Of a stretch of DNA of 64,000 bases, positions 3,795 to 61,795 are shown one piece after another. Origin of the DNA: an uncultured bacterium. Its GTDB lineage: Bacteria > Omnitrophota > Omnitrophia > Omnitrophales > Aquincolibacteriaceae. The notes under the pieces were generated by a model. It was given only the letters and a program-made list of their open reading frames with translations. It did not search any database and had not been told where the DNA came from. Every line of letters begins with the position of its first letter. Positions within the stretch are counted from its first letter, which is position 1. The stretch spans positions 35,119 to 99,118 of the forward strand of contig CAZSFZ010000002.1 in assembly GCA_964606385.1 (NCBI GenBank), in the 5' to 3' direction. The position numbers were made by a program, and so were the translations under genes.

Positions 3795-5249
3795 TCAATA
3801 CTTGTAATGTTCGGGCTTGAAGGGACCTTCGACAGGAACGTCAAGGTATTCGGACTGTTTTTTCGTGAGTTTCGTGAGCCGGGCACCCAATTTATCAAGA
3901 TGCAACCGGGCCACTTCCTCATCGAGCTTCTTATCCAGGCGGTAGACCCCGGGTTTTTTCGGGTTCAGGGCCAGATCGATCTGCGCGAGCGTCTGGTTCG
4001 TGAAAGAATTCGACATCACGAAACTCGGATGCCCCGTGGCACAGCCCAGGTTCACAAGACGGCCTTCGGCGAGCAGGATGATCGAATGTCCGTCCGGAAA
4101 TACGTACTTGTCGACCTGCGGCTTGATATTGATCCGCTTGATCCCCGGCCATTTCTGGAGCTTGGAAACTTCGATCTCATTGTCAAAATGTCCGATGTTG
4201 CAGACGATCGCCTCGTCTTTCATCCTGGACATGTGTTCAGCCGTGATCACGTCGATATTGCCTGTCGTGGTCACGTAAATATCGCCGATATCAAGCACAT
4301 CCTCGAGGCGCGCGACCTGGTAGCCGGCCATGGACGCCTGAAGGGCGCAGATCGGATCGATCTCCGTCACGATCACGCGGGCTTTAAGTTCCGCCAGGGA
4401 CTGGGCGCTGCCTTTTCCAACATCGCCATAGCCCAAGACCACCGCGACTTTCCCGGCGATCATGACGTCCGTCGCGCGTTTGATACCGTCCACAAGGGAC
4501 TCGCGGCAGCCGTAAAGATTATCGAACTTGGATTTGGTCACGGAATCGTTCACGTTGATCGCGGGAACCAGGAGTTTTCCCTGTTCCTGCATTTTGTAAA
4601 GACGGTGAACGCCCGTCGTCGTTTCTTCCGAAACGCCTTCCCATTCCTTCACAACACCATGCCACTTCTTGGGTTCGCTCTTGAGGACTTGCTTGAGCAG
4701 CTTGAAAAGCTCGATCTCATCCTGCGTCTCGACTTTCTTATCAAGGAGCTTCGGGTTCTTTTCCGCATCATAACCCAGATGGATCATGAGCGTCGCATCC
4801 CCGCCGTCATCCACGATCAGGTTCGGCCCCTTGCCCCCCGGAAAATTGAGCGCCTGGAGCGTGCACCACCAGTAATCGGCGAGCGTCTCCCCTTTCCACG
4901 CGAAGACCGGAATGCCTTTGGCCGCAATGGCCGCGGCAGCATGGTCCTGGGTGGAGAAGATATTGCAGGAACACCACCGCACGTCCGCCCCGAGTTCCAC
5001 GAGCGTCTCGATCAGGACCGCGGTCTGGATGGTCATGTGGAGACTGCCCATGATCCGCTTGCCATTGAGCGGCTTTTTCGGCCCGTACTTCGCGCGGGTC
5101 GCCATGAGCCCCGGCATTTCTTTCTCGGCCATAACGATCTCTTTACGGCCCCAATCAGCCAGCGAGAGATCGGCGACCTTGAAGTCCTGCGTTTTCTTGG
5201 AAGAAACCTTCTTTTTCATGGTTTTCTCTTTTTTCTCCAGCGTTAGCAT
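3795..5249 (-). CDS. ahcY: Adenosylhomocysteinase (S-adenosyl-L-homocysteine hydrolase)
   Basis: The N-terminus reads [17 protein letters not shown], followed by a central NAD-binding region ([10 protein letters not shown]) and a [13 protein letters not shown]-terminus. Length is 484 aa. An AAGGTAGGGG SD lies upstream of the ATG at 5249. Confidence 0.9.
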
Positions 5250-6430
5250 GCCGCCCCTACCTTGGTGCAGGCGCAGCCGCCCTTGAGCTTCAGAGCCTTC
5301 CGGAGCTCGTCGACCTTATCCGTTTTTTCCCAGGTGAACCCGGCTTCGCTGCGGCCAAAATGACCGTAAGCGGCGGTCTTGTTATAGATCGGACGACGAA
5401 GGTCCAAAGTGCTGATGATCCCGCGCGGCGTGAAATCGAACACCTTCGTGACGGCATCCGTGATCGCTTCTTCGCTGACCTTGTTCGTCCCGAACGTGTC
5501 CACGCGGATCGAAACGGGCTTGGCCACGCCGATCGCGTAAGAAACCTGGATCTCGCAGCTGCCCGCGAGGCCCGCGGCGACGATGTTCTTCGCCACGTAA
5601 CGCGCGAAATAGGCAGCCGAACGGTCGACCTTGGACGGATCTTTGCCGCTGAACGCGCCGCCGCCATGACGTCCCATGCCGCCATAGGTGTCGACAATGA
5701 TCTTGCGGCCCGTGAGACCGGTATCGCCATGGGGACCACCGACTTCAAAGCGGCCTGTCGGATTGATGAAGATCTTGGTATTCTTATCCATGAGCTTCGC
5801 GGGGATCACTTTTTTGATCACTTTTTCCGTGAGGTCTCTTTGGATGGTCGAGAGCTGGACGTCGCCGTCATGCTGGGAAGAAAGCACCACCGCTTCCACG
5901 CGCACCGGCTTTTCATTATCGTATTCGACCGTGACCTGGCTCTTGGAGTCCGGCCGCAGGTACTTGATCTCGCCTTTTTTACGGACCGCCGTAAGATAGC
6001 GGACCAGTTTTTGCGCCAACATGATCGGAAGCGGCATCAGCTCTTCAGTCTCATCCGTCGCATAACCGAACATCATGCCCTGGTCCCCGGCGCCGCCGGT
6101 ATCCACGCCCATCGCGATATCGGGCGACTGCGTGTGCAGTGCGACATCGATCTTGCAGGTCTTGTAGTCAAAGCCGATCTTGGAATCCACATAACCGATC
6201 TTCTTGATCACATCGCGCGCGACTTTTTCCGCGTCGACCTTGCCTTTGCTCGTGATCTCACCGGCGATGGTCATGCGGTCCGTCGTGGCAAGGCATTCGC
6301 AGGCCACGCGGGAGGCCGGGTCCTGGGCCAGATAAGCGTCCAGGATCGCGTCCGAGACCTGGTCGCAAACCTTGTCCGGATGCCCTTCAGAAACCGATTC
6401 GGAAGTGAAGAAATAGTGCCCTTTTTTCAT
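5243..6430 (-). CDS. metK: S-adenosylmethionine synthetase
   Basis: The protein begins [32 protein letters not shown] and contains the GGGAFSGKD motif. The listed ORF was trimmed to the internal ATG at 6430, which has an AAAGGAG SD. The N-terminal 136 codons of the listed ORF are non-coding read-through. Confidence 0.9.
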
Positions 6431-6437
6431 GATAGTC

Positions 6438-7196
6438 TTACTCCTTTGGATTTGTTGGGGTATTGACGATGGCGTTGGCTTTCTGATAAGAGACGAGGTC
6501 ACCGATATCCAACCATTTTCCCTTAAGAGAAAAAGCAAAAAGGCCCGATGTTTCCGCCAGCCAACGCATATAATGGCCAGGTTGGTCGGTATTATGGCCG
6601 CTTGAGATATACCTGTCAAGCAGGCTGAAAGTCTCCTTGGGAAGCCAGTAAATGCCGCTCGAGGCGAGCGTGGTGGTCGGCTGGGGCGGTTTTTCCTGGA
6701 ACTCCAGGATCTTCCCTTCCTGATCGGTCCGGACGAGGCCGTACCGTTTGGCGAGCTCCTTGTCCCCGACGTCATAGACGGCGATGACCCCGTGCGGACG
6801 CTTCTTTTGGCCGAAATCCACAAAAGAGGCCAGGTCAAAATCGAAGAAATTATCGCCCGCGATCACCAAAAGATCGCAGGGATCGACCTTTTCCGTCTTA
6901 ATGACGTAGGCCAGGTCCCCGATCGCCCCGAGCCGGGTCTCATTACTCGTCGTCTGATCGTTCACGACCTTGACCGGCCAGGGATATTTCGCCTTCGAGA
7001 CCCAGGATTCGAAATGTCCGGCAAACTTCTGATTGCTTACAAGATACACCGTCTCCACGCCAGAAACCTTCTGCACGCGTTCGAGGATCCATTCGAGAAT
7101 GGGTTTATTCCCCACGGGAAGTAAAGGCTTGGGGGTGTTTTCGGTCAAAGGATAAAGACGCGTCGCGTATCCCGCGCAAAGAATAATGACTTTCAT
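6438..7196 (-). CDS. Sugar-phosphate nucleotidyltransferase (NTP_transferase fold; mannose-1-P / heptose-1-P guanylyltransferase-like)
   Basis: The N-terminus reads [35 protein letters not shown], a GXGTRL nucleotidyltransferase signature. Length is 252 aa. Confidence 0.7.
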
Positions 7197-27408: not shown

Positions 27409-28427
27409 GGCCGCCTCAGGACCCTTTCGATCGCGTCAAAAACTTCTTCGGGAACAATATGGGAAAGCCAGCCTTCTTCCGGAAGATCTTTGCCGAAAAA
27501 AGGCACCGGATATCCCGTCGGGACGTATTGTAACACGAGACTTTCGCCGCTCCCACGGGGTCCGGTGAGTTTGGGGTCCGTGGGGCCGAACAGGGCAACG
27601 ACCGGAGCCCCGACGCCGGAGGCGATATGCATGGGCCCGGAGTCTCCCGTCACAAGGCACGCGGCGTGTTTATAGACAGCCGCCGAAACGCGCAACCCCG
27701 TTTTCCCGACCAGGGAGATCACTTTGGCATTTCGGACCGAAGTGGCCAGCGCCTCCCAAAGCAGTTCGTCCTGGGAGGATCCCGTGACCACGACCGGAAG
27801 TTTCCACCTCATTTCGATCATCTCGGCAAGTGCCGCAAAATGTCCGACCGGCCAGCGCTTGGGCTCCCAATTGGCGCCTAAATGAAAACAAATATACCGA
27901 GAGTGTTTCCCGACACCGTGGGATTCAAGGATGCTCCGCGCGGCTTGCTCATCTTCTTCTTTGTAAAAAAACTGGTATTCTTTTTTGTCGGGAAGCTCAA
28001 ATCCCGCCCCGCGCATCATATTGAAGAAATAATCCAGCTGATGCATCAGTTGAGCGGGCTCCTGGACCGCCCGCGTCATAAACATCTTCCGCCCTTTTCC
28101 GTAGCCGATACGCTCTTTGACGCCCGCCATCGCTAAAAGCGCCGCGCGGGAACGGGAGCGATGGAAAAGATATCCTTGCTCCCAAGGCCCTTGTTTCCTT
28201 AACTCCATTAAAAATCCGGCCCGGGAGAGCCAGGAGCGGTGCGTGCTTTTTTCATCGAAACTTAAAAAACCCGAAACCGCAGGATGCGCTTCAAGGATCT
28301 CCCGGCAGCGCTCCGGGGCCATGCAAACGATCGAAGCCTCGGGATATTTTTTTTTGATGAGATCGAGCGCCGGCATCTGAAAAAGCAGGTCGCCGAGCCA
28401 ATTCTTCATCACCGCAAGGATCTTCAT
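27405..28427 (-). CDS. Glycosyltransferase family 9 (heptosyltransferase-like), paralog 4
   Basis: MKILAVMKNWLGDLLFQMPALDLI and TGDSGPMHIASGVGAP are present. Length is 340 aa. Confidence 0.8.
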   Translation of the reverse strand: MKILAVMKNWLGDLLFQMPALDLIKKKYPEASIVCMAPERCREILEAHPAVSGFLSFDEKSTHRSWLSRAGFLMELRKQGPWEQGYLFHRSRSRAALLAMAGVKERIGYGKGRKMFMTRAVQEPAQLMHQLDYFFNMMRGAGFELPDKKEYQFFYKEEDEQAARSILESHGVGKHSRYICFHLGANWEPKRWPVGHFAALAEMIEMRWKLPVVVTGSSQDELLWEALATSVRNAKVISLVGKTGLRVSAAVYKHAACLVTGDSGPMHIASGVGAPVVALFGPTDPKLTGPRGSGESLVLQYVPTGYPVPFFGKDLPEEGWLSHIVPEEVFDAIERVLRRP

Positions 28428-30520
28428 GACGCGAGAACCCTCTGGCAGTGTTCAAAAACTTCTTCCACGGAAATATGCTTGAGGCAGGCCAGGGTCTCTT
28501 TGGCCTTGCAAACGCCGTTGTAACACGGCTGGCACGGCAGATGATGCGAAAGCACATCGATCTTTTTTCCGGGCGGCACATGGCGCTTGGCGTCCGTCGG
28601 ACCAAAAAGCGCAACGATCGGGACGTTCATGGCGGCCGCCATATGAAGCGGCGCCGTATCCCCGGTCACGACCAGATGGAATTGTTTAAAAAATGCCGGT
28701 AATTCGTTCAGCTCGGTTTTGCCCATAAGGTCCAGGATCTTGCCGGTCCCGAAAGAATAAAAAGGCTGTCCCAGGTCGGCCTCCTCGGAAGAGCCGATCA
28801 GCACGATCCTCGCGTCATATTTTTCCAGAAGCCGTTTGGCCAAAGCGACAAAATGTTCCGACGGCCAGCGTTTGCTCGGCCAGTTCGGACTGGACCCCAT
28901 CACGAACCCGATGATCCGTGTAGATTCCTTCGGTTCAAGCGTCGCGATCATTTGTTTTGCTTTTTCAAGGTCCGCGGCCTTAGGCCAGAGTTCCAGGGCG
29001 TCATCGAATTTAACGACGCCGGCCTTGGACAGAACACGGAATTGATGGCGCAGGGGCGAATCACCGACCTCAAAGGTCCTGTCGGGCCGGTTCAGCAGAA
29101 AACCCCATTGCCCGCGTTCGAAACCGAAACGCTGGACCGCTCCCCCGAGATAAGCGAGGAGATGCGTCCATTTATTATTATGGAGATCGACGGACATATC
29201 GAAACCTTCACGGCGCACGCGGCGGGCGGTTTTCAGAAGATAAAAAAGATTCGAAAGTTTCTTCCGGTCCACCAGGATCATGTCATCCAGATACGGGCAG
29301 GATGAAACGATCGGCGCGAGTTTACGGTCCACCAGAAGCGTGATCGCCGCGTCCGGATAACGCTCCTTAAGCATCCGGAGGCTCGGCACGACCAGGATCA
29401 GGTCCCCCATCGCCCCCAGCTTGATCACCAGGATCCGCCGGCGTTTGCGGACTTCCTGATAAACGTCGAGCGTTTTCTTGACCATTTGCTCGAGGTTGAA
29501 CTGCTCCTCCACTTTTTTCCTCAATTTCACCGCAAACGATTTGGCCTTTTCCCGGTCCGTCAGAAGCTCGTACATGGCCTCCGCCATGGCGGGAATATTG
29601 CGCGGGGGGAACAAAAGCCCCGTCTCATGGTGCTCAATAATGTCCCGAACGCCACCCAGCCATGTCGCTACCACAGGCGTTCCCACCGCTCCCGCTTCAA
29701 TGACAACACGGCCGAAGGGCTCGGGGATCAGCGAGGAAAGAACCAACAGGTCGGATGCCGCCAAAAGGCCGGGAACGTCGCGGGTCGGGGGCAGGATCTT
29801 GACACAAGATTCAAGTCCAAATTGATGGACCGTTTTTTTCATCAGGTCTGTGTAACGGTGCCGACCGCGTCCTTCGGACCCTACGATCCAGACTTCAAAA
29901 TGGGAAAGCCGGCTTCGGAGCAGGTGCACGGCCTTAAGGAATTCCACCTGTCCTTTGCCGGCGGAAAATCTTCCCATCTGAAGGATCCGCATGGGACCTT
30001 TATGTTTTTCGAATTTTGCGAAGGAAAAGGTGAATTGAGAAAGGTCGACGCCCCGAGGGATCAGCCGGATGCGATCCGGCGGCACGTTGAATTCGTCGAT
30101 CATTCGCCGCCCGATCGCGTGTGAAGCCACGATCACGCGTTTGCCCCATCCCATGACATAACTCATGGGATGCACGGAATAGTGGCCGTGGCAGGTTGTG
30201 ATGAACGGAACGCCGGTCTTGCGTGCCGCAAGCCACCCGAGCCACGCCGGGACGCGGCTTCGCGCGTGAATGATATCCACACGCTCGCGCTGAATGATCT
30301 TCACGAGTTCTTCGACCAGAAAAAGTCCGGCCAATGATTTCTGATGAACGGGAAGCCCGTAATGAGGGATACCGATCTTTTGGAGCTCGGCCACGAGCGA
30401 CCCGCCGGATGAGACGACTACCGTCGCGTGGCCTTCCTTTTTCATGGCGCGCGCGAGGTCCACGACCCCGCGTTCGGTCCCGCCGAGTTCGAGTCCCGGC
30501 AAAAGCTGCATTACCTTCAT
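28424..30520 (-). CDS. Fused GT4 (group-1 glycosyltransferase) + GT9 heptosyltransferase-like protein
   Basis: The N-terminal ~370 aa form a GT4 fold (EPFGRVVIEAGAVGTPVVAT). The C-terminal ~330 aa are GT9 (ILVIKLGAMGDLILVVPSL...TGDTAPLHMAAAMNVP). Length is 698 aa. Confidence 0.8.
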   Translation of the reverse strand: MKVMQLLPGLELGGTERGVVDLARAMKKEGHATVVVSSGGSLVAELQKIGIPHYGLPVHQKSLAGLFLVEELVKIIQRERVDIIHARSRVPAWLGWLAARKTGVPFITTCHGHYSVHPMSYVMGWGKRVIVASHAIGRRMIDEFNVPPDRIRLIPRGVDLSQFTFSFAKFEKHKGPMRILQMGRFSAGKGQVEFLKAVHLLRSRLSHFEVWIVGSEGRGRHRYTDLMKKTVHQFGLESCVKILPPTRDVPGLLAASDLLVLSSLIPEPFGRVVIEAGAVGTPVVATWLGGVRDIIEHHETGLLFPPRNIPAMAEAMYELLTDREKAKSFAVKLRKKVEEQFNLEQMVKKTLDVYQEVRKRRRILVIKLGAMGDLILVVPSLRMLKERYPDAAITLLVDRKLAPIVSSCPYLDDMILVDRKKLSNLFYLLKTARRVRREGFDMSVDLHNNKWTHLLAYLGGAVQRFGFERGQWGFLLNRPDRTFEVGDSPLRHQFRVLSKAGVVKFDDALELWPKAADLEKAKQMIATLEPKESTRIIGFVMGSSPNWPSKRWPSEHFVALAKRLLEKYDARIVLIGSSEEADLGQPFYSFGTGKILDLMGKTELNELPAFFKQFHLVVTGDTAPLHMAAAMNVPIVALFGPTDAKRHVPPGKKIDVLSHHLPCQPCYNGVCKAKETLACLKHISVEEVFEHCQRVLAS

Positions 30521-32466
30521 ATCATGGCCCCCAACTTCTCAACCAATGCGCCTTTTTCGCGCTGAAGGACCGCCGTCGCGGGTTTTTTAACGAGTTCCGT
30601 GATATTCTTTTCCAAATCCGCCAAACCGCTCAAGGTCACGAGCCCGCGCTGCGCGAGGATCTGGTGAAAACGGTAATGTTTCGCGGGAAGGTCGCCTTCG
30701 CCGCAGCTTAGCACGATCACATGCTTCCCAGTCCCTACGGCTTCCGAGATCATAGCGAGACTGTCTTCCGTCACGATCAGAAGCTCCGCAAGCCCCATCA
30801 TGCCGCCCGCGGCGTAGGGCGGGTTTTCCTCGTTCGCCGCCACAAAAAATCTGCAGCCCGGATGCTGGACAAGTGTGTTTTTAAGAAAACGTTCCGCGGG
30901 CGCGGAGGTCCGGCGTGAAGTGGTGATCATGTAATCCCCCGCGTGAGTACTGACGCGCTTCAAAACCGAACAGAGTTTTTCCATATCAGAAACGGTCAGG
31001 TCATAACCCCGCGTGGCGCCGCCGATAAAGACCGCTATCTTCGGGCGCGCACTTTCCTCAAGCTTTGCGAGAAGTTCTTTCACATCCGATTCGCGGTCCA
31101 TGATTTTATAACCGCTTGGCATGATCACGCAGCGAAGCGTCCTCTTCGGTACTTTGCCTCCATCATGCGCCGGCACGATCGCAAGATCGTAGTGCGTCAG
31201 GGAGTAGGGAAAAGGCGGCTTCATGATGACGATCTTTTTGGCGCCGGTTTCTTTCGCGAGAAGCATCTGGATGGGCGCAAGGCCGGAACCCGCCGCGATC
31301 AGGTAGTCCGCGCTCACCGGCTCGATCGCCTGAAAAGTTTCCGCCGTCAGAAAGGGCTTGAGCCAGGAAAGTCGCCCCTGGATCCAGGGTTTCATCAAAA
31401 AAGCCAATCCGAAAAGAGCCATCCTGTGGAAAGCTGAACGGTATTCGACATGGATCCGTTCCGTCTCGAATTTAAGGCCGGGACGGCCGTGGAATTCCTT
31501 GAACTCCGAAAGCATCTCGGCCACAACTTCGGACTGCTTAAAATGGCCCGCCTTCCCGTCTGAAAGGATCACGATCTTCCGGTCCCAGGAATATTTCCAG
31601 CGTTTGTTCTCCCAGAGCCATTGATTCGGAAATTTGCGGATAAAACCTTCGAGCAATTCAATATATTGCCGGGCCTGGAACTCGATACGCGCTTGCGGCT
31701 CAAGGGAGGGGTCATCTTTCAGGACCTCCTCGGAATACACCTCATGCTCACGTCCTCCGGTCCTCACAATAAAGAACGGCATGATGAACGCGTCCGTCCG
31801 GTGCGCTAACTGGAAAGCCCCGATCGGGACCGTGGTTCTCCTCCCAAAGAACGGAAGGATGATCCCCTCGGTTTTTCCGGCCGATTGGTCGCCAAGCACC
31901 CCTACCATTTTTTTCTCCCGGAGCGCGCGGATCAGACCGCGGATACCCGCGCCGCGGCTGATCGAGACCGATCCGTGACTCTCGCGAAGTTCATTGATCA
32001 ATCCGTTAAGCTTGGGATATTTCTGATCGCGCGCCAGCACATAGATCGGTGTGCCGCGAAGCCCGGACCAGACCTGCAAAAGTTCCCAATTCCCGAAATG
32101 GGCGGTGAGAAGCACCCCGCCGTGCCCCGAACGCAGAAGCGCTTCATAGCGTTCCAGGTGGTGGATCTTGACATCGAGATCATGGTGCTTGCGTTTCATC
32201 TTCCTGAACGACATGATCTCTACCACATTTTGTCCCATGAACCCGAAGTGATCGCGCACGGCTTTCCATCGCTCGCGTGGCGTCAATTGGCTCCCAAGCG
32301 CCGCCTTCATGTTGATGTAAGCCACGCGGCGCTTCTTTGAAACATAGAAGATTCCGCGGCCCAAAAGATCACCGATCTTCAGTCCCGCGGAAAAGGGGAT
32401 GCGTTCAAAAATAAAAATGAGTATGTGGGCGACGGAACAAGCCGCCCGGTCAAGCAGGTCATTCAT
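30517..32466 (-). CDS. Fused LpxL/HtrB-family lipid A acyltransferase + DUF1022 (ELM1-like) domain protein
   Basis: The N-terminal ~300 aa carry the HFGNWE acyltransferase motif and PNQWLWENKRW. The C-terminal ~340 aa resemble DUF1022/ELM1 (GT-B-like). Length is 649 aa. Confidence 0.7.
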   Translation of the reverse strand: MNDLLDRAACSVAHILIFIFERIPFSAGLKIGDLLGRGIFYVSKKRRVAYINMKAALGSQLTPRERWKAVRDHFGFMGQNVVEIMSFRKMKRKHHDLDVKIHHLERYEALLRSGHGGVLLTAHFGNWELLQVWSGLRGTPIYVLARDQKYPKLNGLINELRESHGSVSISRGAGIRGLIRALREKKMVGVLGDQSAGKTEGIILPFFGRRTTVPIGAFQLAHRTDAFIMPFFIVRTGGREHEVYSEEVLKDDPSLEPQARIEFQARQYIELLEGFIRKFPNQWLWENKRWKYSWDRKIVILSDGKAGHFKQSEVVAEMLSEFKEFHGRPGLKFETERIHVEYRSAFHRMALFGLAFLMKPWIQGRLSWLKPFLTAETFQAIEPVSADYLIAAGSGLAPIQMLLAKETGAKKIVIMKPPFPYSLTHYDLAIVPAHDGGKVPKRTLRCVIMPSGYKIMDRESDVKELLAKLEESARPKIAVFIGGATRGYDLTVSDMEKLCSVLKRVSTHAGDYMITTSRRTSAPAERFLKNTLVQHPGCRFFVAANEENPPYAAGGMMGLAELLIVTEDSLAMISEAVGTGKHVIVLSCGEGDLPAKHYRFHQILAQRGLVTLSGLADLEKNITELVKKPATAVLQREKGALVEKLGAMI

Positions 32467-54653: not shown

Positions 54654-55661
54654 TCAGTGATTCCTTTCAAGCACGTAATCCGCGAGCTGTTCCAGGCTGG
54701 TTCTAAAAACGGACGGCGGAAAGATCTCGAGCTCGCGTTTGGCCAGCGTCATGAAGGTTCTGGCTTTTCCGAGGGCGTAATCCAGGGCCCCGCTCTTCTG
54801 GAGGGTTTCCCGCAATATCGAAAGACGCCTGGACTGGCTCCGGGAGTAAAGGATGCGGACCACTTTATCGCGCTCCCCGGACGCGAGGCAGTGGATCACC
54901 GGCAGCGTGTAGACCCCTTCTTCAAGGTCCGAACCGAGGGTCTTGCCGAATTCGCTTTCGGTTCCGTAAAAATCCAACGCGTCGTCCGTGATCTGGAACG
55001 CCATCCCGAAAAAAGTCCCGAACCGGCCGAGCGCTTCGGCTTTTTCGGGCTCGATCCCCCAGATGAGCGCCCCGGTCTGAAGCGCGCACGCGAGTAGTGA
55101 AGCGGTCTTCTTTCGAATGATCTCAAGATGAATCTCTTCGGTCAGATTGATGTTCTTTTTTTCGCTGATCTCCTGAACCTCTCCTTCGCAGATCTCGCCG
55201 GCGGTCTTCAGGAAAAGCGGGATGATCTTGTCGTTCCCGTAACGGAAGATCGTGACGATCGCGCGGTCGTGGAAATAATCCCCCGCAAGAACCGCAGCCT
55301 GCGGCCCTGATTTCACATGAAGCGCGGAGACGCCGCGCCGCAAAGGCGCCGAATCAATGATATCGTCATGGATCAATGTCGCAGCGTGAAAGATCTCGGT
55401 CGCGGCAGCCAGATAAAGCTCCGCGGTTTCGTTGCGTTCGGAAGGGATCTCCTGTCCGGGTTTCAGAGAGCGGGCGAGGCCGGCGCCCAGAAGGATCAGG
55501 GCGGGCCTCAGGAGTTTTCCGTTTTTGGAGAAAAAATGGTCGACCATCTCGCGCATCTTGCCGATGGGCGTGTCCAGCGTCTCCCGGACCAGAGAAGGGA
55601 CCCGCAAAATACCGGACTGAATGGGGGCGTAAATGTCTTTAAGCGTCAGCGTGGTTCTCAT
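54654..55661 (-). CDS. ispB: Polyprenyl diphosphate synthase (octaprenyl/heptaprenyl-type trans-IPPS)
   Basis: The first Asp-rich motif is LIHDDIID and the second is ITDDALD. Length is 335 aa. Confidence 0.8.
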   Translation of the reverse strand: MRTTLTLKDIYAPIQSGILRVPSLVRETLDTPIGKMREMVDHFFSKNGKLLRPALILLGAGLARSLKPGQEIPSERNETAELYLAAATEIFHAATLIHDDIIDSAPLRRGVSALHVKSGPQAAVLAGDYFHDRAIVTIFRYGNDKIIPLFLKTAGEICEGEVQEISEKKNINLTEEIHLEIIRKKTASLLACALQTGALIWGIEPEKAEALGRFGTFFGMAFQITDDALDFYGTESEFGKTLGSDLEEGVYTLPVIHCLASGERDKVVRILYSRSQSRRLSILRETLQKSGALDYALGKARTFMTLAKRELEIFPPSVFRTSLEQLADYVLERNH

Positions 55662-55712
55662 AGGAGGCTGTATTATAACAAAAAGGTCTTTTCCCCTGAG
55701 GGATATTTCCGG

Positions 55713-58632: not shown

Positions 58633-58657
58633 CCACCCCACCTACGAGGTGGGGTGG
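58633..58657. other. GC-rich perfect hairpin (11-bp stem, 3-nt loop) 14 nt downstream of the mfd stop
   Basis: ccaccccacct-acg-aggtggggtgg forms the hairpin. No U-tract follows on either strand. Confidence 0.5.
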
Positions 58658-58671
58658 GTTGATGTTCACTG

Positions 58672-60561
58672 TTAACCGGCTTTCACCTCTTCCACCGATT
58701 TTTTGAGCATCCGGCAATAGAGGTCGAAACCGACGGCGTGGATGAAACCGCTTTGCTCATGTCCGAGGAGGTTCCCGGCGCCGCGGATCTCGAGATCTTC
58801 CATGGCGATCTTGAACCCCGATCCCAGTTGCGTGAATTTTTCGATCGCGTGAAGCCGTTTTTCCGCGTCCTGCGTCATGACCCAATTCTTGGGGATCAGG
58901 AAGTAGGCGTACGCCTGCCGCTTTTCCTTGAACCGGCCCACGCGGCCCCGCAATTGGTAAAGGTCCGCAAGCCCAAAACAGTCGGCGCGGTCCACGATGA
59001 GCGTATTCACATTCGGAATATCGATCCCGGACTCCACAATGCAGGTCGAGATCAGGCAGTCGATCTCGCCTTTCAGGAACCTTTTCATCACATTTTCCAG
59101 CATGTCGACATGCATCTGTCCGTGCATCACACCGAAGCGTACCCCCGGCAAAAGCTTCGTCAACCGGTCATGGACCCGGTCGATCGATTGCACGCGGTTA
59201 TGCACAAAATAGATCTGCCCTTGGCGCGCGAGCTCCCGCTCGATCGCCTGTTTGATGATATTCTCGTGATATTCCATCACAAAGGTCTCGACCGGCATGC
59301 GGCTCTTGGGCGGAGTATCGATCACGGACATGTCGCGCACGCCGAGAAGCGCCATGTGAAGCGTCCGCGGGATCGGCGTGGCCGTAAGCGTCAGCACATC
59401 CACCTGGGTACGCATCTGCTTGAGTTTTTCCTTGTGCCGCACGCCGAAGCGCTGCTCCTCGTCAATGACAACGAGCCCCAGGTCCTTGAAGCGGATATCC
59501 CGGGAAAGAAGCCGGTGCGTTCCGATCACCACATCCGTCGCGCCTTCCTGGAGAGACTTTACAATCGCCTTTTGCTGTTTGGGTGTCTGGAACCTCGAGA
59601 GAAGTTCGACCGTCACGGGGAAATTTTTCGCGCGCTCCTTTAAAAGCACGTAATGCTGCTCCGCCAGGATCGTGGTGGGCACAAGAAAAGCGGCCTGCTT
59701 CCCGCCCATGACCGCCTTGAAAGCCGCCCGCATCGCGACTTCGGTTTTGCCGTACCCCACGTCTCCACAGAGCAGGCGGTCCATCGGACCAGTGGATTCC
59801 ATGTCCTTTTTGACCTCTTCGATCGCGCGTCTTTGCCCCGGCGTTTCTTCGAAAGGGAATTCTGATTCAAATTCCTCCTGCCACGGCGTGTCCTTGGGAA
59901 ACGCGAGCCCTTGAAGCAGGCTGCGCTTGGCCTGGATCTCGAGGAGGTCTTTGGCGACCTTATGGAGCGCCGCCTTCGTCCTTTGCTTGGTCCGTTCCCA
60001 TTCCTGGGTGTTGAGCTTGGTGAGTTTTGGCTCGGCCCCGGACCCGCCAATATACCGCTCCACGGGCTCTTCAAGGGAAAGATAGAGGATCTCGCGTTCG
60101 GCGTATTCGATCGCCATGCAGCGGGTGCGCGCCCCTTGCATCTGAATGACTTTGGTGCCGAGGAAGCGGCCGATGCCGTACTTGAGGTGGACGATGATAT
60201 CGCCGCGTTCAAGGCCTTTCGTACCCGCCACCGGCTCAAAGGTCTCGAACCTTTCCTCCATGCGCCGGAGTTTTTTGCGGAAGAGGTCCGAGATCTCGAT
60301 CAGGAAGACTTCGTCAAACGTGGTCGTGCTTTCACCCGTCGTGAGTGAAAAATCGCGGATCTGGACAGGCACGTCCCCCTGGAACTGAACGCGGACCGGA
60401 AGACGGTAGGTCGCAGGATAGATGTCCACCACCCCGCCGCGCACGGCGAACTCCCCCGGAAGCGCGACATGCTCCCTCTTCTGATAGCGAAGCCCGGCGA
60501 GAAGCTCCTGGAGCGCTTCGATCCCGATCGGGGCGTGGGTCTTAAGGCGTCTGATCTCCAT
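58672..60561 (-). CDS. mfd: Transcription-repair coupling factor Mfd, short form lacking the N-terminal UvrB-homology module (D1a/D2) and the C-terminal D7
   Basis: The protein begins within D1b (GEFAVRGGVVDIYP...VRVQFQGD). It contains the RNAP-interaction domain and the full SF2 translocase (GDVGYGKTEVAMRAAF; DEEQRFGV; QLRGRVGR). It ends at ...LKKSVEEVKAG, where E. coli Mfd continues ~165 aa. Length is 629 aa versus ~1150. Confidence 0.8.
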   Translation of the reverse strand: MEIRRLKTHAPIGIEALQELLAGLRYQKREHVALPGEFAVRGGVVDIYPATYRLPVRVQFQGDVPVQIRDFSLTTGESTTTFDEVFLIEISDLFRKKLRRMEERFETFEPVAGTKGLERGDIIVHLKYGIGRFLGTKVIQMQGARTRCMAIEYAEREILYLSLEEPVERYIGGSGAEPKLTKLNTQEWERTKQRTKAALHKVAKDLLEIQAKRSLLQGLAFPKDTPWQEEFESEFPFEETPGQRRAIEEVKKDMESTGPMDRLLCGDVGYGKTEVAMRAAFKAVMGGKQAAFLVPTTILAEQHYVLLKERAKNFPVTVELLSRFQTPKQQKAIVKSLQEGATDVVIGTHRLLSRDIRFKDLGLVVIDEEQRFGVRHKEKLKQMRTQVDVLTLTATPIPRTLHMALLGVRDMSVIDTPPKSRMPVETFVMEYHENIIKQAIERELARQGQIYFVHNRVQSIDRVHDRLTKLLPGVRFGVMHGQMHVDMLENVMKRFLKGEIDCLISTCIVESGIDIPNVNTLIVDRADCFGLADLYQLRGRVGRFKEKRQAYAYFLIPKNWVMTQDAEKRLHAIEKFTQLGSGFKIAMEDLEIRGAGNLLGHEQSGFIHAVGFDLYCRMLKKSVEEVKAG

Positions 60562-60628
60562 GACGTGTTATTTTAACACAAAATGAAGACACCCATTCCG
60601 CGGAAGAGAGGCAACTTGAAGAGGAGAA

Positions 60629-61795
60629 TTATTTGAAGATCTTGGCGATGCGCTGGACGGCAGTTTCGATATCTTTTTCGGAACAAGCGTAGCTCATGCG
60701 GATGTGCTGCGGGCTGCCGAAAGGTTCGCAAGGAATGACGGCGACATGGACTTCGTCGAGAAGCCTTTTCGCGACCTCAAAACCCTTAAGGCCCGTTCCC
60801 GAGATATCCACAAAGAGATAGAAGGCCCCGTTCGATTTGAAGGGCTTGAAGGACTTCACGGCCTTGAGTTTTTCAATGAAAAGGTCGCGGCGTTTCTGGA
60901 ACACCTCGCACATTTTTTCGGCTTCCGCGTCTCCCTGATCCAAAGCGACCACGGCACCGGGCTGCGTGAAAGAAACAGGATTGGAGGTCGAATGGCTCTG
61001 GATGCTTTCGACGGCCTTGGCCAGGGTTTTGTCCGGGAACGCGGCATAACCAAGCCGCCATCCCGTCATCGCGTAAGCCTTGCTGTGCCCGTTGACGATC
61101 ACCGTGCGTTTGGCGATCTCGGGGTCGAGCGACGCGATCGAGGCGTGCTTCCGGCCGTCAAAAACAAGCTTCTCGTAGATCTCATCGCTTAACACGATCA
61201 CATTCGGGAATTTTTTGAGCACCGCGCAAAGGGCCTTGAGCTCTTCGGCGGTATAGACCGCGCCTGTCGGGTTCGATGGCGAATTGAGGATGAGGATCTT
61301 GGACTTGGGCGTAAGCGCTTTTTCAAGCACTTCAGGGGTGATCTTGAAATCCGTCTTTTCCGTGGAAGACAGAAAAACGCTTGTCCCGCCGAGTACCGTC
61401 ACCATCTCCGGATAGCTCAGCCAATACGGCACCGGGATCAACACTTCATCGCCGGAGTTCAGGAGCGCGAAAAGCACATTAAAGATGACGTGCTTGGCGC
61501 CGCAGCCGACCACGATCTGTTCCGGCGTGAAATCCAGCCCCTGGTCGCGCTTGAGTTTGCGGCAGATGGCCTGACGGAGCTCTACGGTCCCCGGGACGGG
61601 AGTGTACTTGGTGTTCCCTTTTTTGAGGGATTCGATCGCGGCGTCCTTGATGAAAGCGGGCGTGTCAAAATCCGGCTCGCCGGCGGAGAGGGAGATCACG
61701 TCGATCCCCTGCGCCTTCATCGCTTTCGCCTTGGCAGCGATCTCAAGCGTGACCGAAGGCTTGACCGACAAAACTCGCGCGGAAAGCTCCATCAT
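60629..61795 (-). CDS. Aspartate/aromatic aminotransferase (class I PLP-dependent)
   Basis: A PLP-lysine region (NGHSKAYAMTGWRLGY) and LSAGEPDFDTP near the N-terminus are present. Length is 388 aa. Confidence 0.85.
   Translation of the reverse strand: MMELSARVLSVKPSVTLEIAAKAKAMKAQGIDVISLSAGEPDFDTPAFIKDAAIESLKKGNTKYTPVPGTVELRQAICRKLKRDQGLDFTPEQIVVGCGAKHVIFNVLFALLNSGDEVLIPVPYWLSYPEMVTVLGGTSVFLSSTEKTDFKITPEVLEKALTPKSKILILNSPSNPTGAVYTAEELKALCAVLKKFPNVIVLSDEIYEKLVFDGRKHASIASLDPEIAKRTVIVNGHSKAYAMTGWRLGYAAFPDKTLAKAVESIQSHSTSNPVSFTQPGAVVALDQGDAEAEKMCEVFQKRRDLFIEKLKAVKSFKPFKSNGAFYLFVDISGTGLKGFEVAKRLLDEVHVAVIPCEPFGSPQHIRMSYACSEKDIETAVQRIAKIFK

Follow-up and report, generated by a model that had tools for sequence, protein, structure and literature searches.

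The transcription-repair coupling factor (TRCF) Mfd is a model autoinhibited motor protein and has been proposed as an 'evolvability factor' drug target. In current models, domains D1-D3 and D7 repress the motor and hide the UvrA-binding surface until a stalled RNA polymerase (RNAP) has been verified; during loading of E. coli Mfd these domains are remodelled, and D2 exposes its UvrA surface only late in the process, which provides kinetic discrimination between stalled and paused complexes (Kang 2021, PMC7864632). The hook-relay interface around W550 forms a second layer of control that is independent of the D1-D3/D7 clamp (Smith 2012, PMC3488230). Engineered E. coli variants devoid of D7 (deltaD7) or of the N-terminal clamp (deltaBHM/deltaN) are derepressed for ATPase activity and translocation, and the deltaD7 protein binds UvrA constitutively and still supports transcription-coupled repair (TCR) (Manelyte 2010, PMC3025350; Smith 2012, PMC3488230). 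In nature, the UvrB-homology module is missing in its entirety, D2 included, from the Mfds of Buchnera aphidicola, Wigglesworthia glossinidia and the Arabidopsis chloroplast, which retain D7 and occur in hosts without UvrABC (Smith 2012, PMC3488230). These were the only natural atypical Mfds that we found described, and full-text literature searches returned neither a natural short Mfd of the kind reported here nor any account of Mfd in Omnitrophota. Here, we analyse a 629-residue Mfd, termed mini-Mfd, encoded in a 64,000-nucleotide stretch of DNA (the window) from an uncultured Omnitrophota bacterium of the Aquincolibacteriaceae (contig CAZSFZ010000002.1, positions 35,119 to 99,118). With a probability of roughly 0.65, we consider it to be a minimal TRCF that lacks the clamp and whose UvrA-docking domain is always exposed, and not the Mfd uncoupled from UvrA that had originally been predicted.

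Mini-Mfd is composed of D2, a linker, D4 (the RNAP-interacting domain; RID) and the translocase domains D5 and D6, and lacks D1a, D1b, D3 and D7. Its coding sequence (58672..60561, minus strand, including the stop codon at 58672-58674) opens with an ATG, and the product scores 866.2 bits against the NCBIfam mfd equivalog TIGR00580 (cutoff 800); the E. coli-type model NF007966 (PRK10689), with a score of 610 against a cutoff of 1329, is not satisfied, and all RecG models remain far under their cutoffs, the best reaching 408 bits against 718 and covering residues 215-607 only. Pfam recognizes UvrB_inter (PF17757) at residues 6-87 (E = 4e-15), CarD_TRCF_RID (PF02559) at 117-164 (E = 2.7e-9; 37.4 bits, cutoff 23), DEAD (PF00270) at 240-402 (E = 1.3e-25) and Helicase_C (PF00271) at 438-544 (E = 5.8e-21), with no match in the protein to the TRCF/D7 domain (PF03461). 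BLASTP against E. coli Mfd (taken from NC_000913) aligns two segments: residues 15-90 with E. coli 139-211, corresponding to D2, and residues 81-629 with E. coli 437-989 at 47% identity, a stretch that opens with the final D3 strand and the D3-D4 linker (residues 81-116, aligned with 437-472) and reaches the end of D6. E. coli residues 1-122 and 214-436 are left unaligned, and the C-terminus falls at the equivalent of E. coli residue 989 ('...VEEVKAG' in mini-Mfd, '...VDALKAG' in E. coli). A phmmer search of PDB sequences likewise gave a two-piece match to the mycobacterial protein (182-247 and 533-1050), in which mini-Mfd residues 12-77 are aligned with M. smegmatis Mfd 182-247.

All of the domains are encoded on the minus strand of the window. 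D2, the UvrB-domain-2-like UvrA-docking domain (residues 1-90; 60292..60561), starts at the D1a/D2 boundary, as delimited by PF17757, the alignments and an AlphaFold2 (AF2) model. In the model of residues 1-116, the predicted local distance difference test (pLDDT) score is 91-96 for residues 1-70 and 87-94 for residues 71-90, and the best structural matches are 4dfc_A, the Mfd D2 of the core UvrA/TRCF complex, with a root-mean-square deviation (rmsd) of 1.4 Å and a template-modelling (TM) score of 0.89, and 3fpn_B, domain 2 of UvrB as crystallized in the UvrA-UvrB interaction-domain structure, with an rmsd of 1.7 Å and a TM score of 0.88. The whole-protein model (pLDDT 73) is matched by Foldseek to crystallographic and cryo-EM structures of Mfd. 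D2 is followed by a linker (residues 91-116; 60214..60291) that is equivalent to the E. coli D3-D4 linker and aligned with E. coli 447-472. In the whole-protein model its residues 99-114 have a pLDDT below 50, and in the D2-only model residues 92-107 form a helix; a basic/acidic motif (K96, K97, R100, E109 and P110) is conserved within the family. The linker is thus not drifting freely, having conserved residues and a prediction that is partly helical and partly disordered, and it may contact DNA or the RID. The RID itself (D4, residues 117-165; 60067..60213) is defined by PF02559 and by an alignment with residues 473-527 of E. coli Mfd (473-547 at its widest) that places I139 at the position of L499. 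It is joined to the motor by a connector (residues 166-215; 59917..60066) that includes the relay helix, modelled at residues 186-215. D5, or translocase domain 1 (residues 216-420; 59302..59916), coincides with PF00270 and contains the Walker A (GYGKT, with K272) and Walker B (DEEQ, with E368) motifs, while D6, or translocase domain 2 (residues 421-629; 58675..59301), coincides with PF00271, contains the translocation-in-RecG (TRG) motif and the hook helices, and ends at the D6/D7 boundary.

The original prediction, which was made from the sequence of the window alone, had described a mini-Mfd that starts inside D1b, keeps the RID and the superfamily 2 motor, stops right after the translocase and lacks D7 together with both D1a and D2. 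Much of this outline agrees with the present results: the RID and motor are retained, the protein ends where the translocase ends, and D7 and D1a are gone. The start, on the other hand, lies at the D1a/D2 boundary and D2 is present, so that what had been seen as a coherent loss of both partner domains is a loss of D7 with D2 retained.

In mini-Mfd both the motor and the RID are intact. K272 and E368 align with K634 and E730 of E. coli Mfd, and the TRG residues R569, R593 and Q603 with R929, R953 and Q963; all five are invariant in the family, as is W188 of the relay helix, the equivalent of E. coli W550. Mini-Mfd is very probably a functional RNAP-targeted translocase. The hook-relay interface is the only known regulatory element that it retains: the parts that perform the remodelling described by Kang 2021 (PMC7864632) are missing, and the counterpart of the approximately 25-residue D3-D4 linker is kept, fused straight to D2.

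The same architecture recurs throughout a large family. A first search, covering about 5.8 billion proteins, listed 120 clusters at 64-100% identity, 119 of them 617-683 residues long and the remaining one a 489-residue fragment annotated as partial. All 119 full-length clusters share the Pfam set of mini-Mfd, and in their alignment 116 members start 0-4 residues from M1 and all end 0-21 residues past G629, the tails being variable and of low complexity. A second search, with the most divergent short form (from locus L017) as its query, listed another 120 clusters of 609-655 residues with the same domains; PF03461 is absent from all 240 listed clusters. Every organism-named cluster among these approximately 240 is assigned to Omnitrophota/Omnitrophica, and many of the clusters lie on contigs of 0.1-1.5 Mb. 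A protein identical to mini-Mfd is present in public data (P0001), and its closest named relatives come from 'Candidatus Omnitrophota/Omnitrophica' metagenome-assembled genomes (MAGs). NCBI names within the family (P0298, P0302, P0338 and others) are inconsistent, ranging from 'transcription-repair coupling factor' to 'DEAD/DEAH box helicase', 'CarD family transcriptional regulator' and 'helicase-related protein'; annotation pipelines fail to recognize the short architecture consistently.

In an exhaustive HMMER scan of 1.84 billion representatives clustered at 50% identity, only two of the best 150 were truly short (640 and 642 residues). With a single exception the others are 989-1393 residues long and match in two stretches, D2 and D4-D6, and the nearest long Mfds belong to other lineages, namely NPL-UPA2 and Halonatronum. 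The exception, P0246 (838 residues), is probably a fragment and was rejected as a further short form, since its cluster contains an 1151-residue member and it lies on a 4.7-kb contig. The short form was found at 17 loci in species-representative genomes (L002-L018), and in a neighbour-joining tree of the D4-D6 region all short forms fall into one clade, which indicates a single origin. Four of these loci belong to MAGs labelled 'uncultured Planctomycetia' (L015-L018: CAYVEO010000001.1, CAYOSQ010000005.1, CAZESF010000045.1 and CAZBLX010000109.1) and were considered as a possible independent origin. This was discarded, as they fall within the same clade and have close relatives named Omnitrophica, for example 4484_70.1; their Planctomycetia label is probably wrong or outdated. 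From the distribution of its homologues, mini-Mfd is apparently common to the whole candidate phylum Omnitrophota.

A protein of about half the canonical length, scoring below the PRK10689 cutoff and inspected within 64 kb of its genome, could in principle come from a pseudogene, from a fragment left by assembly or gene calling, or from part of a split mfd with its other pieces elsewhere. The context of the gene argues against this. An in-frame TAA lies 9 nt 5' of the ATG, an aspartate-aminotransferase-like open reading frame (ORF; aspAT, 60629..61795) precedes mini-mfd and ends 67 bp before its start codon, and a SurA-like gene follows downstream, beyond an 11-bp perfect hairpin, which together leave no room for a frameshift to have created an extension at either terminus. 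The deletions coincide with domain boundaries, and the same ends are found in about 240 independent clusters. With E. coli D1a, D1b-D3 and D7 as queries, tblastn gave no match in the window or in L002-L018, and profile hidden Markov models (HMMs) of the same three regions, built from 76 long Mfd representatives, found nothing at E <= 1 in six-frame ORFs of the window and the 17 loci (about 0.4 Mb of related sequence), whereas each of the six control loci with a long Mfd was matched, at 1e-14 to 1e-54. Omnitrophota genome 58 has PF02559 and no PF03461 in the source data of Seymour 2023 (PMC10066038). A frameshifted or split gene was accordingly rejected: nothing upstream restores D1a and none of the ORFs downstream encodes D7, so that the 629-residue ORF of the original prediction is real and no artefact, and a search for the N-terminal module as a separate ORF found no D1a in the window and the 17 loci, its other half, D2, being located within mini-Mfd itself. 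We regard the pseudogene or fragment explanation as highly improbable.

The retained D2 is probably functional and, judging from its conservation, under purifying selection. Members of the short family share a mean pairwise identity of 0.57 over D2 and 0.75 over D5, compared with 0.39 and 0.65, respectively, in 60 long Mfds, so that, measured against the motor, D2 is constrained no less than its counterpart in canonical Mfd. Twelve residues of D2 do not vary in the short family (Y26, R41, G42, D46, P49, T51, Y52, R53, P55, R57, F71 and G76). Among them, R41 and R57 are the equivalents of E. coli R165 and R181, which are reported to sit at the D2:D7 interface and to contribute to the surface that interacts with UvrA (Manelyte 2010, PMC3025350). 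Since D7 is absent, the conservation of these arginines cannot serve D7 binding, and UvrA docking would be the remaining known function. A D2 that is well folded in the model, constrained by selection and equipped with both arginines is at odds with the proposal that mini-Mfd is an RNAP-displacing factor uncoupled from UvrA recruitment, and we think it reasonably probable that UvrA recruitment is retained.

Several observations nevertheless weigh against a coupling factor that is permanently open to UvrA. F185, the last of the three UvrA-binding residues altered in E. coli 'D2AAA', corresponds to E, R or Q in the short family, and F or W is found at this position in 43 of 60 long Mfds; T51-Y52-R53 is a lineage-specific invariant motif, and G76 stands where long Mfds have an invariant Q. 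Co-evolution with the UvrA of the phylum or a changed partner may lie behind these differences, and the lineage-specific residues could also mark a new intramolecular contact. A permanently activated Mfd has, moreover, been judged unlikely in a cell (Smith 2012, PMC3488230), and a second canonical mfd or a separate D7 gene may exist elsewhere in this genome. No uvr gene was seen in the window or its flanks: neither uvrA nor uvrB appeared among the ten largest ORFs, in tblastn searches of the window and of the related loci, or in about 14 kb past the left edge of the window, a result that is uninformative as only about 1% of each genome was covered. The evidence for UvrABC comes from Omnitrophota genomes other than this one, where these genes are annotated. 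In the sheets of Seymour 2023 (PMC10066038), all counts of which are 1 and were taken as presence or absence and not as copy number, K03701 (uvrA), K03702 (uvrB) and K03703 (uvrC) accompany K03723 (mfd) in genomes 58 and 231, TIGR00630 (uvrA) accompanies TIGR00580 (mfd) in genomes 190, 104 and 143, and genome 58 also lists PF17760, the UvrA domain that contacts UvrB and Mfd, together with PF17755, PF17757 and PF12344.

These observations can be read in two other ways. Mini-Mfd might be an RNAP-displacing or anti-backtracking translocase that has lost UvrA recruitment and keeps D2 for folding, for solubility or as a tether, in line with the non-aromatic residue at the F185 position, the lack of a uvrA in the window or its flanks, and the existence of natural Mfds that work independently of nucleotide excision repair (NER) in Buchnera, Wigglesworthia and the Arabidopsis chloroplast (Smith 2012, PMC3488230). 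Those NER-less proteins, however, have lost the whole UvrB-homology module and kept D7, the opposite of the pattern seen here, and the degree of conservation of D2, with its UvrA-contact arginines invariant despite the loss of D7, also speaks against this reading. The unit that has been kept is, besides, exactly the 85-94-residue piece that was crystallized with UvrA, and UvrA with its UvrB-interaction domain, UvrB and UvrC are encoded in other genomes of the phylum; we therefore consider this explanation unlikely. Alternatively, D2 may have been repurposed, either as a new autoinhibitory element in place of the old, docking on the motor or RID, or as an adaptor for a partner other than UvrA. 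Its invariant surface motif T51-Y52-R53, the exchange of Q for G76 and the lost aromatic residue would fit such a change, as would the expectation that Mfd should not be permanently active (Smith 2012, PMC3488230). Against it, neither a partner nor a docking site was identified, the structural model offers no inter-domain confidence, and the core UvrB/Mfd D2 signature (R41, G42, D46, P49, R57 and F71) is unchanged, which makes repurposing slightly less probable still.

Under the preferred reading, that of a clamp-free coupling factor with an exposed D2, three deletions at domain boundaries, of D1a, then of D1b and D3, and then of D7, would have taken place in the ancestor of the phylum, leaving D2, a linker of about 29 residues, the RID (D4) and the D5-D6 translocase. 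The RID would dock on the beta subunit of a stalled RNAP, and the RecG-like motor would translocate along the upstream duplex DNA, pushing the polymerase forward or off. The tethered D2, with neither a D7 mask nor a D1/D3 scaffold to reposition it, would always be available for UvrA, to which, as UvrAB, the site would be handed. In the absence of the D1-D3/D7 clamp the motor is predicted to be derepressed, by analogy with the E. coli deltaD7 and deltaN/deltaBHM proteins, and the conserved hook-relay interface (W188) would be the sole intramolecular control left. RNAP displacement, UvrA binding and constitutive activity are thus all expected of mini-Mfd by comparison with its characterized relatives.

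Comparison with known systems places mini-Mfd within the canonical Mfd/TRCF group, represented by the E. coli (2EYQ, 6X26-6X50) and mycobacterial (6AC6) structures, with which it shares the RID, the relay helix, the TRG translocase, the hook helices and a D2 with the R165/R181 equivalents. Canonical proteins are, however, approximately 1000-1250 residues long, and mini-Mfd has none of the autoinhibitory clamp, the D7 mask over D2 or the multi-step remodelling that hides the UvrA surface. The engineered deltaD7 and deltaBHM/deltaN proteins likewise lack D7 or the N-terminal clamp; in contrast to them, the natural protein combines both kinds of deletion and spares D2, and the literature examined contained no laboratory construct with the layout D2-linker-D4-D6. 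The Mfds of Buchnera, Wigglesworthia and the chloroplast are also natural, shortened and in possession of RID and motor, but mini-Mfd is their reverse, with D2 kept, D7 lost and UvrABC annotated in the phylum. RecG has a homologous motor, the TRG motif and a long helix ahead of the motor, and RecG models match mini-Mfd residues 206-616; the N-terminus of mini-Mfd, on the other hand, consists of D2 and RID, with no wedge domain. Finally, D2 is 30% identical to UvrB domain 2 (3FPN chain B), with which it shares the signature residues named above, but is an N-terminal appendage of a translocase in mini-Mfd and an insertion in helicase domain 1 in UvrB.

The genomic setting of mini-mfd is conserved. 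The gene order rpoA-rplQ-aspAT-mfd-surA-pdxA-ksgA-ispB is kept across Omnitrophota loci (L002-L014 and L016-L018), and the adjacency of mfd and surA persists even in the most divergent short-Mfd branch; in L002, L004 and L010, 2-3 kb of additional DNA separates aspAT from mfd. The window has a G+C content of 52-59%, and nearly all of its genes lie on the minus strand. Between the mfd stop codon and the surA start there is an 11-bp perfect inverted repeat, CCACCCCACCT/AGGTGGGGTGG, with a 3-nt loop (58633..58657, no strand assigned), which is single-copy in the window. It was considered as a canonical intrinsic terminator and rejected as such, since the coding strand has no T-run. On the 5' side, the spacer between the aspAT stop codon and the mfd ATG measures 67 bp (60562..60628, minus strand), so that the interval ending at 60628, to which the original prediction referred, comprises the mini-mfd ORF plus this spacer.

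A leaderless start had also been suggested for mini-mfd, from an extended -10 element 8 nt before the ATG and the lack of a Shine-Dalgarno (SD) sequence in the 67-bp spacer. These features are present as described: the candidate promoter element TGTTAAAAT (60570..60578, minus strand) stops 8 nt short of the ATG, and positions -18 to -4 contain nothing SD-like. The pattern TGNTANAAT occurs seven times in the window, against 2.5 expected, and six of the seven are on the coding strand. Related loci lend comparative support. Among 12 close Omnitrophota loci, seven have TANNNT 6-9 nt from the start codon, six of these with the TG extension and none with an SD; an extended -10 at 6-9 nt recurs in L002, L003, L004, L006 and L014, and L012 has TAACAT at 7 nt. 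Of the other five loci, four have a GGAG-like SD in place of such a -10, while L013 has neither, and the remainder of the aspAT-mfd spacer is not conserved. An alternation of -10 and SD among loci is the pattern expected of two modes of initiation, and makes the leaderless suggestion plausible. Against it, a simple -35/-10 scan called no promoter upstream of mini-mfd, owing to the lack of a -35 element. On balance, mini-mfd is probably also transcribed from the extended -10, with a start at or within a few nucleotides of the ATG, which would yield a leaderless mRNA. The ORF of an ispB-like polyprenyl synthase (54654..55661) likewise lacks an SD and has an extended -10, TGTTATAAT, at 55672-55680 (minus strand), 10 nt from its ATG; mRNAs that are leaderless or nearly so may recur in this genome.

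Elsewhere in the window, two minus-strand ORFs of a lipopolysaccharide (LPS) cluster resemble fusions: that at 28424..30520 joins a GT4 glycosyltransferase (residues 4-358) to a heptosyltransferase II (residues 362-696), and that at 30517..32466 begins with a lipid A lauroyl-acyltransferase (residues 9-293) followed by approximately 350 residues with no NCBIfam match. The MetK ORF (5243..6838, minus strand) is listed with a TTG start that lies 142 codons ahead of the region matching TIGR01034, and its true start is probably downstream.

As a natural, phylum-wide form of Mfd, mini-Mfd defines the minimal architecture tolerated by evolution, and offers a compact protein for structural and biochemical work. 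A further-reaching and more tentative possibility is that the whole phylum runs TCR with a clamp-free Mfd, the UvrA-docking domain of which is permanently unmasked. If this is true, the repression, remodelling and kinetic proofreading of E. coli Mfd would be dispensable, or would have been replaced by something that has not been seen so far. More radically, the remodelled D2 surface, with its T51-Y52-R53 motif, G76 and the lost aromatic residue at the F185 position, might couple the removal of stalled RNAP to a different partner. Mini-Mfd also makes directly testable the question of whether autoinhibition is required for TCR or is a mere refinement of it.

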